Shown here piece after piece: positions 15,373-63,191 of a stretch of DNA of 64,000 bases. The position numbers were made by a program, and so were the translations under genes. Position 1 is the first letter of the stretch; the number at the start of each line of letters is the position of its first letter. Under the pieces are notes generated by a model. The model worked only from the letters and a program-made list of their open reading frames with translations, made no database searches and had not been told where the DNA came from. This DNA is from Chiloscyllium plagiosum (taxonomy: Eukaryota). The stretch covers positions 10,791,733 through 10,855,732 of the forward strand of contig NC_057744.1 in NCBI RefSeq assembly GCF_004010195.1, written 5' to 3'.

Positions 15373-15519
15373 CTGGGAAAAGAAGACCCTCCATGTTAAA
15401 GCAAATAAGTTGCAAGGTCAAACATCAACCACTAAACTAAAACCATAAAAATCAGTCTCTGCTGTACTTTAACGTCACATTCAGAGTAATGTAACCAAGG
15501 GCAATTCTATAAACTCCCC

Positions 15520-15920
15520 AAAATAAAGCAAAGAACTGCAGATGCTGGAAATCTGAAACCAAAACAGAAATTGCTGGAGAAACTCAACAAGGTTAAAATT
15601 TCAAATCCAGTGACCCATCTGCACAAAATAAAAGCAAATTACTGCGGATGCTGGAATCTGAAATCAAAAGAGAAAATGCTGGAAAATCTCAGCAGGTCTG
15701 GCAGCATCCGTAAGGAGAGAAAAGAGCTGATGTTTCGAGTCTAACTGACCCTTTGTCAAAGCTCTTTTCTCTCCTTACAGATGCTGCCAGAGCGGCTGAG
15801 ATTTTCCAGCATTTTCTCTTTTGGGGACCTTTCTGCACAACTGCTCAGAAATGTTAATTCTGCTTTCTCTACACAAGTGCTGCCAGAACTGCTGAGTTTC
15901 TCCAGCAATTTCTGTTTAAC
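15520..15920. mobile_element. Nested Penelope-like terminal palindromes (young one 15627-15825 inside an older one)
   Basis: ctgcagatgctggaaatctg-type ends. Inner arms 15665-15728 and 15760-15823. Flanking near-duplication GACC(CA/TT)TCTGCACAA. Confidence 0.75.
15722..15766 (-). ncRNA. Minimal type I hammerhead ribozyme motif, U3-A8 variant
   Basis: Minus strand: stem I, UUGACAA, A, GGGUC-AGUUA-GACUC, GAAA, CA, UC, stem I'. Activity unknown. Confidence 0.55.
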
Positions 15921-15999
15921 CATCCTTTAAGTTTCTGTGCTGTTTACATCCATGTTCGGATGCCCTTAATTAGCTGTGACCTCAGTAATATTACAGATA

Positions 16000-16480
16000 A
16001 ATCTTACTTGAGGAATGATATACTGGCTTTGGAGGCGGTGCAGAGGAGGTTCACCAGGTTGATGCTGGAGGTGAGGGGGTTACCCGATGAGGAGAGGTTG
16101 AGCCGCCTGGGCCTATACTCACTAGAATTTAGAAGAATGAGAGGGGATCTTATAGAAACTTATAAAATTACGATAGGGATGGATAAGGTAGGGGCAGGCA
16201 AGTTGTTTCTGCTGGTGGGTGAGACTAGAACTAGGGGACATGGTCTCAAGATTAGGGGGAGTAGATTTCGGACAGAGATGAGGAGGAACTGCTTTTCCCA
16301 GACAGTAGTGAATCTATGGAATTCTCTGCCCAAGGAAGCAGTAAGGAAACAGTAGAGGCAGCTTCATTAAATTTACTCAAGACACAGTTGGATGAGTTTT
16401 TGCATGGTGGGGGAAATAAGGGTTATGGGGACAATACAGGTAGGAGGAGCTGAGACAATGGATAGATCAGCCATGATCTT
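16000..16480 (+). mobile_element. CR1 3' fragment
   Basis: ORF 15960..16355 (LEAVQRRFTR, RGDLIETYK, RTRGH, VNLWNSLP). Confidence 0.88.
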
Positions 16481-17659
16481 AATGAGCCATAATAGGGAAA
16501 GGGAGATTGTGCCGAACCTTAAGGAGCATGGGATCTAATCTTTAAAAAGCTATTTAGTTTCCAAAAGCAAGGCATGACACACAAATGGACTGCAAAGTAT
16601 TTTTGGCTGCACTAATTAGTTAAGAGGAAGGTACGTTTGCTATAGTTTGTTTGTATTAACTGACTATTCATTACTGTAAGTAAGGGATGAACATGTTTAA
16701 AGTTGGTAGATCTTTAATTTTGAGCCAAGATTACAGTGCTTCTGTTTTCTGCCATTTAAGCAATGTGTTCTCTCCTGGCTTGAAGAGGAACACAGTTTAA
16801 ACCAAAAGCACAGGACAGCAATTTCTGTATCAATATGATTACAAATGTGAAACTGAATTTAAAAATGTTGTTTTACAATGTCACCTTCAATTTAATGTGA
16901 AACAGAATGTCCTGGAATGGGGTATCGTGAAATCTCACTCTGTTTAGAGGTAGAGCTGAATGATTTGGTTAATATGAGAAAAGGGCCGATAGCTAATAGA
17001 AAATCACGTGATATCTTTTCTGCCAAGATATACCTGTGTTGCTGGTCTTTCTGGACTGGGGTTGAATGACTTAGAGGGGAAGACTAAAATAGCTACTGTT
17101 TTATTTTAGGTGTTGAGTAATATAATGAAGAAACAGATTCTCTCCGGATTCTGGTTCAAGGGATGGGACCTGTGGAGGTTAAGAACCCAGGAGGTACTGA
17201 AATGACTCTTATTGCTGGGAATCAGATTGAAAGTCCTTTTATCCAAACTCTGAGTATCCTCAAAGGACAGTGGAAGACAAGTGTCACAAGGAGGCGGGAG
17301 CCTGTTGTCAAGCTTTGGTTAGCATCAAATTAACGTTCAAGTCTACTTATTTACCAAAAGCATGACTTACAGATGTGTCAAATAGTTTGACAACATTACT
17401 TACTTTAGATTTTTAGATTAGATTCCCTACAGTACGGAAACAAGCCCTTCGGCCCACCTAGTCCACGCCGACACTCCGAAGAGTAACCCACCCAGACCCG
17501 CTTCCCTCTGACTAATGCACCTAACACTATGGGCAATTTAGCATGACCAATTCACCTGACCTGCACATCTTTGGACTGTGGAAGGAAACCGGAGCACCCG
17601 GAGGAAACCCACGCAGGCATGGGGAGAATGTACAAACTCCACACAGACTATACTTAAGA

Positions 17660-18990
17660 AGTCATAGACTCAATACAGAAGAACAGCACAGAAACAGACC
17701 CTTCGGTCCAACTTGTCCATGCTGACCAGATATCCTGAACTAATCTCTCGTTTCATTTTCCAGCAATTGGCCCATATCCCTCTAAACCCTTCCTATTAAA
17801 TACCCATCCAGATGCCTTTTACATGCTGTAATGGTACCAGCCTCCACCACTTCCTCTGGCAGCTCATTCCATAAACACACCACGCTCTGCATGGAGAAGT
17901 TGCCCCTTAAGTCTCTTTTATATCTTTACAATATATCTCTCACCCTAAACCTATGCCCTTTAGTTGTGGACTCCCCCAACCCAAGGAAAAGACCTTGTCT
18001 ATTTATCCTATCCATGCCCCTCATGATTTTATAAACCTCTGTAAGGTCACCTCTCAGCCTCTGATGCTCCAGTGAAAATAGCCCCATGGTAAATCTCCCC
18101 ATAGGTAAATCTTTTCTGAACCATTTTAAGTTTCACAACATCCTACCGATAGGTAGGAGACCACAACTGCATGCAATATTCCAAAAGTGGCCAAACCAAT
18201 GTCCTGTACAGCCGCAACAATGCTCTGACCAATAAAGGAAAGCATACCAAACGCCTTCCTCACTATCCTATCTACCTGCGACTCCATTTTCAAGGAAATA
18301 TGAACCTGCACTCCAAAGTCGCTTCGTTCAGCAACACTCCCTCAGACCTTACCATTGTGTATAAGTCCTGCTCTGATTTGCTTTAACAAAATTCAGCACC
18401 TCGCAATTATCTAAATTAAACTCCATCAGCCACTCCTCAGCCCATTGGCCCATCTGGTCACGATCCTGTTGTAATCTGAGGTAACCTTATTCGCTGTCCA
18501 CTACACCTCCAATTTTGGTGTCATCTGCAAACTTATTAACTATACCTTGTGTTCACATTCAAATCATTTATAAAAATGATGAAATGTAGTGATCCCAGCA
18601 CCGATTCTTGTGGCACTCCACTGGTCACAGGCCTCCAGTTTGAAAAGCAGCCCTTCACCACCACCCTCTGTCTTCTACCATTGAGCCAGTTCTGTATCTA
18701 AATGGCTAGTTCTCCCTGTATTCTATGTGATCTCACCCTGCTAACCAGTGTCCCATGAGGAACCTTACTGAAGACCACATAGATCACATCCACCACTCTG
18801 CCCTCATCAATCCTCTTTGTTACTTCTTCAAAAAACTCAAACAAGTTTGTGAGACATGATTTCCCAAGCACAAAGCCATGTTGACTATCTTTAATCAGTC
18901 CTTGCCTTTCCAAACACATGGAAATCCTGTCCCCCAGGATCTCCTCCAACAACTTGCCCGACGTCAGGCTCACTAGTCTATAGTTCCCTG
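17660..18990 (-). mobile_element. CR1 LINE RT to 3' fragment
   Basis: ORFs 18698..18973 and 18126..18311. Highly similar to 3802-5190. Confidence 0.9.
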
Positions 18991-19745
18991 TCTTTTTTAA
19001 TTAGTTAGTTTCTGTAATTTGCTTATATTGACTATTAGGTCATATTTATACATCATATTATATTGATTTTTGTTTATTTGGTATAGTACAAGCCTTAAAT
19101 ATGAAATCTTGCTTTGCAATTCTTCCAGTTGATGGGAACTTGTAATTTATTTTAAAATTATCAGTCTCTACTTGGATTGTAATAATAACTAATAGATAGT
19201 AATAAATGGAATAAAATAAAATTCTGGTTATGTCTCAGCTGGAGCTGTTTCCAGACACCACAGTTTAGGAAGGATGTCAAGATTTGCATCAGAGATTTCT
19301 GAGAAATATATCCAGCATTAGGTACTTCATGTAAAGTCTTTTTTAAATCACTAACCATCCCAGAAAATTGAACCACTGAAGTCCTTGGGGTGTAGGAACA
19401 CCCACTGCCCTGTTAGGAAGGGAGCTGTGGGATTTAGACCAGTAACAGTGAAGGGACTGCTCTCTAGTCCCACATCTGGATGGTGTGAGACTCATAGAGG
19501 AGATACCACATTGACCATTGTTGTTTCTGATGCCTATTCCAATGCCGATATCAGTTTCGTTCCTTCAGACTTTGTACAGGCTTTTATACAACTGCTCAAC
19601 TGGGTAATCATGAACCAGATGAGATTTTAACAACAATCAACATGGTTACACAGTCAGACTAGTTTTTAATCCCAGATTTTTTTTGAATTCAAATTTCATC
19701 ATTTACCACACCAGCATTTGGGCCCCTGGGATTCTAGATTACTAG

Positions 19746-19824
19746 GATTCCTGATGAAGGGCTTATGCTTGAAACATCGATTCTCCTGCTCCTTGGATAC
19801 TGCTTGACCTGTTATGCTTTTCCA
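19746..19824 (+). mobile_element. Short Penelope-like insertion beginning at a hammerhead motif (CUGAUGA 19751-19757), flanked by a GATTCTAG(A)TTTACTAG duplication
   Basis: ctgatga-a-gggc-ttat-gctt-gaaa-ca-tc. Direct repeats at about 19730-19745 and 19825-19840. Confidence 0.65.
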
Positions 19825-21499
19825 GATTCTAGTTTACTAGCCCAGTGATATTCCCGCTTTGCCGCTGCATTTTTCCTGTGAACAGACTAAAGAAGCTGGA
19901 GTAGCTCTCCTTAGAACAGAAAAGGTTAATGACGTTTAATAATGATGTTCTATACTATGGAATTTGAGAAAACAAATAAGGAAAAACTGTTTCCATTAGG
20001 AGGGTCAATAACCAGACACTCAAATTTAAGATAATTAAGAAACCAGACAGGAGTTTTTTTTTGTCTTTCCACAGCAGATTGTTATGGTCTGGTATCAATA
20101 GACAATGGACAATAGGTGCAGGAGTAGGCCATTCTGCCCTTCGAGCCTGCACCACCATTCAATATGATCATGGCTGATCATCCTTATTCAGTATCCTGTT
20201 CCTGCCTTATCTCCATAACCCTTGATTCCACTATCCTTGAGAGCTCTATCCAACTCTTTCTTAAATGAATCCAGAGACTGGGTCTCCACTGCCCTCTGGG
20301 GCAGAGCATTCCACACACCCACCACTCTCTGGGTGAAGAAGTTTTTCACTGCAGAAAAGAAGCTGAAAACAGATTCAATAATCATTTCAAAAGGGAACTG
20401 TCTGCTGGAAAGAAAATAAATGCAAAGATCTGAGGAAAGAACTGCGACGGTACGACTGGTTTTCCAAAATGAAGACAAAAGTCTGCTGCAAGAAACCGTG
20501 ATTTCAGAAACATAAGAACATGCACGAGCAGGAATATGCCATCTGGCCTGTCAAGCCTGCCCCACATTCAGTAAGATCGTGGCTGATCTTTTTGTGGACT
20601 CAGCTCCACTTACCCACTCGCACACTATAACCCTCAATTCCTTTCCTGTTCTATCTTTGCTAGTTTTGGCTAGTTTCCGGAGGATGCAAACACCAGATCC
20701 TAACATCATTCTGAGACATTATTAATGCTAGGCCCTGGTGTGGAGCCTGATTAAACCGCTGCTAAGGACATGAAGAGTGAATCATGTAGTGTCAGCGAAA
20801 AGCAAGACTCCATCTGAGGGACATGAGTGAACCAGTTGTACTCCCAACAATCTTGCAACTGTCAAGCTCATTTCTGTCCTGGTGCTGTCCAAATATATTT
20901 CATTCTCTCCCACAATTCATCACAATGGAATGTGAACGTGTAATCTCTAGGATTGTGAATATATCCATAAATATGTACAGTGCTGGGGAAGCCAACTCTA
21001 ACAGAGTTTGGGCTGGTGATGGGTTATAGGAATATAACTGGAGTTCCAAGTCTGATCAAAATGCAACACCACCAGCTAGAATCTGCTCTCTGTTGTCAAA
21101 GAGCCTGACAGCATGATCTGGCTAGATTTATAGGTGCTAAGTAATCATTGGGAGGAGGCTGAGAGATAGGGGTAACATCACCAGACTAACAATCCAGAGT
21201 CTTTGATATCCTTAAAAGCACCATGACAGATGGTGAAATTTGAATTTTAGTGTGAAATTAAAAGATAGTTTAGTTCTAATTGTGACAATTTAAAGATTGC
21301 CATGAAAATTTCACCTAGCTCCACTAAAGTCTTTTAAGGAAGAAAATCTGCCACCCTCACCTGGTCTGGCCTACAAGTGAATCTTAACTGCCCTCTGAAA
21401 TGAGCTATCCAAGTCAAGGGCAGTAGAAGGTGGGTAATAAATGCTGGCGCAGATGGTAACGCCTTACATCCCATGAAAGTATTCTTAAAAATTCAATGT

Positions 21500-22205
21500 A
21501 ACTATCAATGAGGGGAGTACTGGAGCAGAGGGACTTGGGGATTCATATGCATGATTCTCTGAAGGTGGCCAGCCAAGGTAAAACTGTTGTTAAAAAGGCT
21601 TATAGGATCCATGGGTTTATAAACAGAGGCAAAGAGTATAAAAGCAAGGAAGGGATGCTACACCTCTACAAATCTGGGCACCTTATTTAAAGGAAGGAGA
21701 TCAAATCCCTGGAGAGGGATCAAGGAGATTTACTAGAATAATACCAGGAATAAAAGATTTTAGATACAAAGAAATAGAAGAAAAATTAGATTTATTCTGC
21801 ATGGAGAAGAGAAGATTACGTGGTGACCTTTCTGAGGTATTCAAAATAATGAATGATTTTTTCAGGATAAAGAGGATATTCTGTTTCCACGAGTTGGTTT
21901 ATCAGTAACTGGGGATCATAATTTCAAGATTGTCAGCAAGGGAGCTATACGTGAGATGAGGAGAAACTCCTTTATCCAGGGAGTTGTTAAGCTTTGGAAA
22001 GTGCTGCCTGGGAAAGTGGTAGAGACAACTCCATGGGAGTTCTTAAAAAAGACAGCTGAATATATATTTAGAAGTGATTAATTTAGAGGGCTACAGAGAG
22101 AGGGCAGAAAGAGTGGGATTGGCTGGGTAGCTCTTTCGAGAACCGGTACAAACACAATGGATCGAATGGCCTCCTTCTGCACTGTAAAGTTCTATAATTC
22201 TATGC
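21500..22205 (+). mobile_element. Old CR1 3' fragment
   Basis: ORF 21508..21690 (QRDLG.HMHDSLK) and a CR1-type tail. Confidence 0.75.
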
Positions 22206-23296
22206 CCTGGCATTCATAAAACCCACAGCCTGCACCTACAGGAAAGATGAAATAATTAAAATGAATAGTGGAATACGGACATGAAGTTACACTTCAGTTG
22301 TACTAAGTGAAATTCCCACTAATCCGGGAGTCCGCATAGCTGCTCGAAGGGTCTGCACTCACTAATCAATGTGCAGAGTCATTGACGTCTGGTTCGGGAA
22401 GTTGCTACCATGTACAGATCTAAAGAGGTCCACACAGCATCAGGAAAGATGAGAGAGGACATTGGCACTAACTTCTAGTTAGACCCCTTATAATGGACCG
22501 TGCGCCATTTAGGCAACACAGCTCACATGAAATACATTACCATTGAGCACAGATCTGCCACAATGATATTGGGGCCTAAATATATCTTTTATTTATTCAC
22601 AGAATGTAGGCTTTACAGGCTAGGCCAACATGTATTACCCTCTGGGCAATTAGGGAATGGGCAACAACCACATCGCTGTGGGTCTGGAGTCACATGCAGG
22701 TTTGACTGGGTGAAGATAGCAGTGTCCGTCCCTGGAGGCTATTGGTGAACGAGATACGTTTTTCCAACAATCGACAATAGTTCCACAGTCATTACTGGAC
22801 TTTTTTTCTAGAATTAGAATCAGAATTCCTACAGGCCATTCGGCCCAGCAAGTCCACACTGACTCTCCGAAGAGTAACCCATCCAGACCCATTCCCCTAC
22901 ATTTACCCCTGACTAATGCACCTAACCTACAGATCCCTGAACACTATGGGCAATTTAACACAGCCAATTCACCTGACCTGCATATCTTTAGATTGTGGAA
23001 GGAAACCTGAGCACCTGGAGGAAACTCATGCAGACAGAGGGAAACTTTCAACTACCGATTTTTGTTGAATTCAAATTGCACCATCTGTTATTGGTGGGAT
23101 TCGAACCTGGGTCCCCAAATTATTACCAGGTTCTCTAAATTAATTGTCTAGCAATAATAAGGACTAGTTTGCGGCATAGTCTGATATTGCCTTGACCATC
23201 GAAGAGGTGAAATGACATATTTAATTCCGAATGCTCCTCAGACCCACTGTTGGTTGAGCAGCAATAAATTGGCACACTTGAATTAAAAAAAAGCAC

Positions 23297-42460: not shown

Positions 42461-43358
42461 TGAATGTGACAAAAATGACAGATCTAAATGAAGGCATCAC
42501 AATAAAACTCAAGGTACATAGAATTCTCAATCCATCAGCTAAAAACCGAACATCTCTTTTACAATCAGATTACGTAAGGTCTTTAAGCTTCATTGGTACA
42601 AATATCAAAAACATTCAAATCAAACTGGCCATTGTTTACAACAAGTCTCAATTCTCTGTATGTGGAACACAGCAGAGAAACAGTCAGTAGTGACAGAAAA
42701 TGCTGCAAATACTCACCAGGCCGAGCAGTGGAGAGAGAAAAAGAGTTAACATTTCAGATTAATGACCTTTCATCAGAACATTCAAACTGTAACACGTTCT
42801 AACCAAATACAGAGGTATGGTTGCAAAAGAATGAAAATGATGATAGCAAGAAAGTGTGGTATTAGAAAAAAAAAAGAAATGGATGGAGAGGTGGTGCTAG
42901 TTACCCCACCAGAATCAATTACAATAGCTTCTGGGCAGTTTCAAAGCTGACATTATTATCGATTTGAATTGGAAATTAGTTCTTTAAGAACTAGTATGGA
43001 AGTACGAAGTATTCACTTCCTACTCTTCTGTAGATCCAAAATGAATAACTATCGCTATATTACTTTCCACTTAAGCATCTCTTCTTGTGAAAATTAATTT
43101 GGATGAGAGATGCTACCAAACATTAACCAGTCTCTGAATCTGAAGAAGGGTCATATAGGACTCTAAACATTAAACATGTTTCTCTCTCCTCAAACACTGC
43201 CAGATCTGCTGAGTTTCTCCAGCACTTTGGAGAAAAAGAATTGGTTGATATAAAAACAAAGTTGTTACGCGCTTCAATTTTTGTTTCAAATTTAAATTTT
43301 TCTTCTATCATACTGCGATCAAAATGACCCCTCTTACCCGTCAGTATTGCCTACTCAC

Positions 43359-61327: not shown

Positions 61328-63191
61328 CTGCAAGAGAGACAGAGCACAGTACATCTACTTAGAAAAGAATGAATGCCAAATTCCTAAGCTGTTTTCTTGT
61401 CATCGGTATTAGGAAGCTGATAAAATGAACTCGGATCATGAATTTCTGGAGCTCAACACTAATGACAGGAGCATCTCTTTCAAGATATCAATACAATACA
61501 TTACCATTCATAAGCCAAAATGTCAAAATAAAATTCTAGCCAATTATGTATTAGCTTTGAGTCTCAACCATCAGGGCTGCAAACTTGCATTATATGAAAA
61601 ATATATTGTCCTTTATAGCCCATCACACAATACAGGTTGTAATTAAAACACAAAGAAGGGTCACTGAACCCAAAATATTAACTCTGCTTTCTTTCCACAG
61701 ATGCTGCCAGACCTACTGGGTTTTCCTAGCAATTTCTGTTTTTGTGTCTCATTTCCAGCATCTGCAGTTCTTTTTTTTGTTTTAAACTTGGGCTGAGATT
61801 ATTAAAATACCTGAATAATCTTATGTGAATGTTCCATATTTAATAAAACCTCTACTGCTATATTAGATGACAAGCAACTAAACACTAGTCCCTTCAAGTT
61901 GCACTAACTAATCAATCTTTTACTTAACCTTTTTCTTAAATGTACTTCCCAGTGTGAATTATGATAGTTTCCTTCTCCATTTCAGCAATGTAAAACACCT
62001 CTCCATCAAGTAAAATAATCTTGTCTATTGACTTTTGAACCTACAAATTTTATATATGAGTTAATACTCCCAATGCAGAACTTGGAGGAGTACAATGGAG
62101 GTGCGTAACAGATGTTTGGGTTTGTAGGAACATCAGCTGGTGTTATTGCTTTCTGTGCCAGAACTCCTGAGATGCATTCCTAACGTGTGAATTACTGTTT
62201 AGGGATGGGTAACTTATACGATATACTCCACATGTTAAAGTAAACATTCAATCCTCCCACCATCAGCACATGAAATCTAGAGGACGCTTATTCAATTTAA
62301 TCCTAAGACTGCCAACTATTAGAAAGAATTCCTGATCTAATAGCACTGTGAAAGTGTATTAAGTGCATAGAGTGCAGTGTAAAGAAAGAAGATTTGTCTT
62401 TTTCCCAAATGCATCTAGAAATGCTCAATAAATGCTGGCCTTGCTTATGATTCCCATAGTCCAAAATGAATACAATGAAGCAATGGATTATCGAAAATGA
62501 TATGAGAAATCTCAACAAGATCGCAGGGTATAAATGCAGATAATTGAAAGAGAAATTTAAAATACATATACAATTTTATTAAAGTGCAATGAGTATTTAT
62601 AAAAATCATTGTATAGGCTAATGGAAAAAAATATTGTGGTTATAGAAAATGCAATTATGTGCTGTGAAAACAAGTTATACATATTTGAGCCAATTATTGT
62701 TTTTTTTTGACATTAGAGATGGCTTACCAAGTTTCTACACCATTGGTAGAGGGAGTTGATGTTTAAAGTGGTGGATAGGGTGCCAACTGAGCAAACAGCA
62801 TTTACCTGGATAATCCAGGCATGAAGTGAGTATCCAAGCAGCCTCAATGTGTGCCTAGTAGATGATGGCAAGGCTTTAGGAATTTGGGAACTGAACTGCT
62901 GGTGGCTCAAGAAACTATTGCATTTTTGTCCAGGTTGAGTTACTAGTCAATTTGAATGGTAGAAGTTTCACAGATAGTCATGTCAACAAATGGTAAGGAA
63001 AGGTAGTTAGACTCCTTTTTTGTTAAGTAGTGATTACCTAACACTTGTCTGCAAATTTAAAGTGACACTTGTTGACTCAAGCAGAAGGTTATGAAAAGAA
63101 TATTTCTAGCATTAAGCACTGAAAGATGCGATCCAGCTTTCCTAATTCTGAGCTGTTTTATGACATAGATTCACAAGAATATTTTCAGAGG

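Follow-up and report, generated by a model that had tools for sequence, protein, structure and literature searches.

A palindrome within an intron of ALG9 in Chiloscyllium plagiosum carries a hammerhead-like sequence in its loop, and the locus raises the question whether this is a ribozyme of the host transcript or the remnant of a mobile element. In the preliminary description of the window, i.e. the whole stretch of 64,000 nucleotides analyzed, the palindrome had been interpreted as a "structurally locked ribozyme" built in a housekeeping pre-mRNA.

The hairpin, its core and the host intron

By direct reading, the minus strand from 15759 to 15729 is UUGACAA-A-GGGUC-AGUUA-GACUC-GAAA-CA-UC, which confirmed the loop sequence given in the preliminary description together with the exact positions of the arms. 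The loop of 31 nt is enclosed by two inverted arms of 64 nt (15665-15728 and 15760-15823) that are 95% complementary; they begin with the base preceding core position 3 (15760) and with the base that follows the predicted cut (15728). The hairpin has a minimum free energy of -122.1 kcal/mol (z -16.8), and none of 200 shuffled sequences was equally stable. In this fold, helices I and II are paired with probabilities of 0.9-1.0, helix II lies within the loop and the hammerhead core is unpaired.

Based on the sequence, the family alignment and an architecture as described in PMC4209133, we annotate 15729..15759 (minus strand) as a minimal type I hammerhead core. U3 is located at 15759, A8 at 15754 and an extra A at 15752. 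Helix II comprises 15751-15747 and 15741-15737 and is followed by G12-A14 (15736-15734), the helix III half ACAU (15733-15730) and C17 (15729), with the predicted cut at 15729/15728. The core contains YUGANRA, the extra base after position 9, G10.1-C11.1, GAAA and NUH, and positions 3 and 8 form a Watson-Crick pair, here U3-A8. The palindromic segment 15.1-16.1 that would build helix III in a dimer is absent from the window copy (ACAU), whereas it is present in the family (ACGU). Two checks had been proposed at the outset: folding confirmed the hairpin with helices I and II, and the search with hammerhead covariance models had the opposite outcome, as the Rfam scan returned no hammerhead model at E<=10 and only microRNA-hairpin look-alikes under the gathering score.

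The ALG9 exons are found on the minus strand at 30083-29932 (a candidate first exon, in a CpG-rich stretch), 24281-24143, 23431-23297, 15372-15302 and 14958-14870, and exon 23431-23297 matches ALG9 of PDB 9s6s (E 2e-20). As had been stated, the exon matches place the element in the third ALG9 intron (15373..23296, minus strand), in sense orientation and 255 nt upstream of the exon-4 acceptor. Public contigs of related organisms end within the repeat and are swamped by other repeat copies, and none of them spans the insertion site.

A Penelope-like family with a U3-A8 core

We found at least 2,092 exact matches of the core pattern in the 3.56-Gb genome compared to none for the reversed control, so the core is not a product of chance. 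The downstream 32-mer of the unit has at least 2,939 exact matches. In the 30 loci read, the family unit consists of AGCT, the core, CGTC, AGCT and then about 65 or about 101 bases. It follows from this layout that the native helix I is AGCU/AGCU, i.e. 4 bp long, and that the palindrome ACGU makes up the native helix III half. One copy (L024) reaches further upstream and includes the end of a reading frame for an endonuclease.

Long copies were sought by homology of the upstream ORF and UTR only, blind to the core, which gave 40 near-full-length matches, 30 of which were read. Their ORFs are broken and contain RT motifs, a CxxxxCxxC linker and GIY-YIG, all identified by eye; Pfam matches of the long-copy proteins to GIY-YIG (E 8e-4) and RVT_1 (E 0.07) were both under the cut-off, and one of three proteins had no match. 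Within the 3.6-kb loci read around the 3' end of these 30 copies, the hammerhead core follows the EN stop and the 3' UTR. The family thus combines an ORF for RT with a GIY-YIG domain at the C terminus, a hammerhead downstream of the ORF, inverted 5' truncation and a tail of 30-40 bp, the window copy itself being without an ORF. Judged by these sequence features, the parent is an EN+ Penelope-like element (PLE), and the assignment to a Penelope-type minimal hammerhead made in the preliminary description is borne out by RT and GIY-YIG copies that end in the same unit. The parent probably belongs to the Neptune clade, a placement read from a single feature, the CxxxxCxxC linker between RT and EN; a Zn-finger-like RT-EN linker is said to mark Neptune and Nematis, and one-sided tails of 30-40 bp are described for PLEs (PMC8557442).

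Of the 30 long copies, 29 have U at position 3 and all have A at position 8. In sister families that share helix II, C3-G8 is retained (386 matches; among 100 listed, none has the loop of the U3-A8 family), and mixed cores are rarer, with 161 matches for C3-A8 and 49 for U3-G8. The claim that U3-A8 is a compensatory pair is therefore upheld, and the contrary expectation, that the family consensus would expose U3 and A8 as independent random mutations, does not apply, since both are family-wide. In a 22-row alignment with 17 distinct rows, pair 3-8 is CG in 12, UA in 4 and other in 1 of these, and covariation is also seen for one helix I pair (UA 9, CG 5), the invariance of the core columns being partly by construction because the rows were picked by core patterns. 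On this sequence evidence, the 3-8 covariation is real, but it amounts to one evolutionary event in one lineage. As a clean natural case of a compensatory tertiary 3-8 swap that became fixed in a vertebrate retroelement active in the past, the family lends support to selection acting on the ribozyme fold of Penelope elements.

Other origins of the variant core were considered. A C3-A8 intermediate subfamily was not supported, as 16 of the 21 matches read by eye (161 in total) take their C from the flank or the inverted arm and 5 are point mutants. A locus-specific double mutation of a C3-G8 core was rejected in view of the genome copies and of U3 and A8 in the long copies. The search for further U3-A8 families with N7 other than C yielded mostly point mutants of the Penelope U3-A8 family and apparent decayed copies of another family.

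The family comparison also accounts for the helix III half of the window copy. G occupies position 16.2 (the equivalent of 15731) in 22 of the 27 long copies that have a base there, and among 109 sampled arms the helix III end is most often CGTC (58), followed by TGTC (21) and CATC (17). The substitution G16.2>A at 15731 (minus strand) is thus of the CpG type and breaks the ACGU dimer palindrome, in agreement with the earlier suggestion that ACAU is a CpG-decayed ACGU. Both CpG sites together with UUGA-AA are kept in only 18 of 103 sampled arms (junction-broken arms included), which indicates that the family copies decay freely.

Like the metazoan PLE minimal hammerhead ribozymes (min-HHRs) described in PMC4209133, the core is of type I with a short helix I, an extra base between 9 and 10.1, and G10.1-C11.1. 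About 1,300 U3-A8 min-HHRs are reported from Cercyon Penelope elements of Schistosoma mansoni (Cervera and De la Pena 2014, PMC4209133), and our family shares with them ACGU in place of helix III, the U3-A8 pair, mostly single dispersed copies and opposite-strand pairs. In contrast, the vertebrate rows in Fig. S3 of that paper all begin with CUGA and include no cartilaginous fish, whereas here a vertebrate host carries UUGA; the window copy further differs from the min-HHRs described there by its broken palindrome and its 64-bp closing stem. Several natural hammerheads with the same change from C3-G8 to U3-A8 are reported to be active in vitro (Perreault et al. 2011, PMC3088659); unlike the window copy as a monomer, these have a helix III. 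Short dispersed PLE-derived hammerhead copies in vertebrates, a chondrichthyan included, are described as non-LTR retrozymes or solo pLTR monomers (Li et al. 2026, bioRxiv 10.64898/2026.07.22.740005). The window feature resembles these, but retrozymes are head-to-tail tandems and it has a single core, an inverted arm and no head-to-tail tandem unit.

Overall, this is a known motif in a known insertion structure, new only as a vertebrate family with the published U3-A8 core. The paper by Lunse, Weinberg and Breaker (RNA Biol), reportedly on dimer cleavage of Penelope hammerhead variants, and the supplements of the 2026 preprint lay outside the literature searched, in which we found no published shark U3-A8 Penelope hammerhead; either may list such variants.

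Inverted copies, their junctions and their template

At the window locus, the 3' terminal repeat (pLTR) end of the Penelope-like element is present as a forward copy at 15628..15763 (minus strand), comprising AGCT, the core and 101 nt downstream. It is 97.8% identical to the family majority, with three substitutions (15731, 15709 and 15664) in 136 positions. A second copy, inverted and 5'-truncated, occupies 15760..15825 (plus strand) and runs from the base after the cut to about +64/+66; it has 2 substitutions in 64 positions, and its junction recurs elsewhere. The two copies have the 4 nt AGCT at 15760-15763 in common. A one-sided "tail" of about 37 nt (15628..15664, minus strand) is found at one insertion end only. 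The element is flanked by a 15-bp repeat, putatively a target-site duplication, whose unstranded copies at 15612..15626 and 15826..15840 are identical in 13 of 15 positions. In total, the window copy has 5 substitutions in 200 nt, similar to the family median identity of 97.8%. We also observed that the family has two acceptor-like tracts, each a run of pyrimidines followed by CAG, past the cut site; the first of these is without AG in the window copy through the substitution at 15709, and the second (15672-15658, minus strand) is intact, in sense orientation and about 285 nt upstream of the exon-4 acceptor.

To describe the insertions, we used the first 96 distinct arms, from 88 loci, among the 2,939 matches of the downstream anchor. 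An inverted arm is present in 41 of the 88 insertions; among these 41, a long outer end is paired with a short one in 38. The stem runs only as far as the short outer end, which accounts for its length near 64 bp. The inner junctions are scattered, the commonest being head to head at the first AGCT. The junction type of the window has 19 exact genome copies, of which 15 have stems of 60-69 bp and 12 an intact ACGU, compared to 7 and 6 junctions at two sites outside the ribozyme where the microhomology is the 3-nt AGC. Its exact register is explained by AGCT being a 4-nt palindromic microhomology.

By its sequence, the hairpin is accordingly the standard Penelope "inverted copy plus one-sided tail". 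The preliminary description was correct in placing the junction at stem I, as it falls on the AGCT of helix I. Its central idea of a structurally locked ribozyme was not supported, since the native helix I has 4 bp and the 64-bp stem belongs to the common inverted build. As in the PLE insertions described by Craig et al. (2021, PMC8557442), there is an inverted partial copy at the 5' end, a tail of about 37 nt and a GIY-YIG at the C terminus; unlike in those PLEs, the unit measures only 100-135 nt, with most copies sharing a single start base. The sharpness of the 5' ends and the combination of one long and one short end bear on the mechanism of Penelope integration, the architecture itself being already published.

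The young element was inserted in the dead hammerhead core of an older, decayed stub of a sister Penelope family (C3-G8 type), and both are of the inverted build. Repeats and alignment place the forward part of the older stub at 15519..15626 (minus strand), and repeats place its remainder with the inverted arm at 15826..15917 (plus strand). The copy at locus L078 likewise adjoins the start of the hammerhead of another family. Insertion into pre-existing PLE ends may possibly reflect a preference, or chance given the density of PLE ends. Further decayed Penelope stubs with C3-G8-type hammerhead remnants lie in the window at 43140-43228 and 61650-61783 (both plus strand), along with about a dozen more partial Penelope matches.

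The starts of the 96 sampled arms are informative with respect to the template. Relative to U3, 55 arms start at -4 to -1, 6 at -8 to -5, 12 further upstream and 23 downstream, with one at the cut site. In the parent copies, TATAAATA (TATA box) begins 31 nt upstream of -4. Two sister copies have a TATA-like box and, at the same place, TCAGTT or TCAGCT, which we take to be initiator-like. Starts that lie 4 nt before the core and 31 nt below a TATA box make it likely that the copies stem from uncut RNA, and we infer from these sequences that the short copies derive from uncut RNA starting at helix I. Furthermore, 19 of 43 short copies have G directly before AGCT, compared to a background of 21-22% (p about 0.001, uncorrected, with rows that are not independent); this excess, not confirmed among the TSD-bounded copies, might be a weak sign of a cap-derived base. 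A 3' splice site (TTTTAG/CT) in place of a transcription start is disfavored, as the AG is kept in 32 of the 96 arms and a common upstream exon is absent. Four of the 12 arms reaching above the short-copy start (L040, L041, L044 and L117) have their ends between -40 and -46, slightly upstream of the TATA box, possibly at a second preferred stop.

These results suggest that the feature is, very probably, a retrotransposed Penelope stub with a family-wide U3-A8 min-HHR, in which a forward and an inverted partial copy are joined at AGCT, and which resides in ALG9 intron 3 as a likely neutral, non-cleaving passenger. Family membership, the parent ORF, the copy numbers, the junction class and the substitutions are direct readings, from which we infer the mechanism. 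The parent would be transcribed from a TATA/initiator promoter, the first base of the RNA being the first base of helix I. At a nicked target, reverse transcription of the uncut RNA of 100-135 nt would proceed from both target strands, giving one end with and one without the tail. The AGCT at a cDNA end could then pair with the second AGCT, located immediately beyond the cut site, on the other cDNA or by folding back, and this annealing would close the core in a 64-bp stem. Cleavage by the parent hammerhead would require a dimer formed through the ACGU palindrome, which the window copy would have lost after insertion.

Alternatively, the inverted arm might have been copied from RNA already cut by the U3-A8 hammerhead, in which case the 19 junctions would document germ-line cleavage at the DNA level. 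The inner arm end indeed falls on +1, and the 19 copies exceed those at the two control sites. Moreover, 4 of the 46 U6 loci read (48 scored; L223, L240, L250 (two), L257) have U6 attached immediately after the predicted cut of other Penelope families, which suggests that cuts of this kind take place in this genome. However, the same junction is expected from the AGCT microhomology, which at 4 nt exceeds the 3-nt controls, and only a single one of the 96 arms starts at the cut site. U6 fused to the cut site of the U3-A8 family was found neither among exact genome matches (0) nor at the U6 loci read (0 of 46), which carries little weight because the family is small. We therefore consider a cut template unlikely. 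The same doubt applies to the fuller scenario in which helix I supplies the first base of the transcript, a capped leader of 35 nt would be lost on cleavage, and the 19 hairpins would join cDNA of uncut RNA to cDNA of U3-A8-cut RNA. If true, it would provide a genomic record of a variant-core min-HHR cutting in a vertebrate germ line, and ready-made natural substrates.

U6 chimeras are common in this genome. Many U6 copies run straight into the start of one abundant short repeat (L221, L228, L229, L233, L238, L241-L248, L251, L254, L261), and others are followed by LINE-like or tRNA-like sequence (L224).

Predicted activity and consequences for ALG9

For the window copy as a monomer, the computed structure forms helices I and II and gives helix III a pair probability of 0.0, i.e. 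there is no hammerhead fold; this and the lack of an Rfam match distinguish it from a canonical monomer-active hammerhead. Compared to two monomers, the dimer fold costs +10.8 kcal/mol for the window copy, with or without the long stem, and +4.7 kcal/mol for ACGU copies, in energies that contain no tertiary contacts, Mg2+ or proteins. A dimer would require pairing of ACGU and a strand swap of helix I between the cores, for which the unwinding of 64 bp would pose a further kinetic barrier. After the loss of ACGU, the window copy is predicted to be unable to form helix III. Even for min-HHRs in general, PMC4209133 reports no in vitro cleavage of single units and weak cleavage of dimers, and 8 of 9 Xenopus dimers tested did not cleave (Li et al. 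2026, bioRxiv 10.64898/2026.07.22.740005).

With a dead ribozyme, the 64-bp duplex or the acceptor-like tract at 15672-15658 might still slightly alter the processing of intron 3, by A-to-I editing or as a cryptic acceptor. Long intronic duplexes are ADAR substrates, the hairpin is very stable and close to exon 4 (255 nt), and the tract provides pyrimidines followed by CAG in sense orientation. Yet such hairpins are common in this genome, and the contigs of two presumed RNA runs cover exons 4 and 5 only, with no additional exonic coverage separable from repeat copies, which renders such an effect distinctly improbable.

Finally, it is hardly credible that the 64-bp stem pre-organizes an active or reactivatable ribozyme that cuts the ALG9 pre-mRNA and affects its processing: although the element lies in sense in intron 3, helices I and II are well formed (0.9-1.0), conserved intronic hammerheads occur in amniotes (PMC6155905) and U3-A8 cores can be active (PMC3088659), the monomer has no helix III, the palindrome is broken, the divergence is at a neutral level, the same structure exists at 18 other places in the genome, loop II is without a loop-loop tertiary partner, the 64-bp stem is open-ended, and min-HHRs are weak even as dimers (PMC4209133). 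With the amniote intronic hammerheads (RECK and others, PMC6155905) the window element shares the sense position in an intron; those are described as conserved and canonical, whereas it is a young copy of a repeat, with decay at the rate of its family. As one decayed copy among thousands, likely without a role for ALG9, the locus itself is of little weight.

Elsewhere in the material, contig C13 contains two intron-free Glyco_transf_22 open frames at 55842206-55843489 and 55881113-55882402, ~39 kb apart, which possibly represent a tandem duplication.
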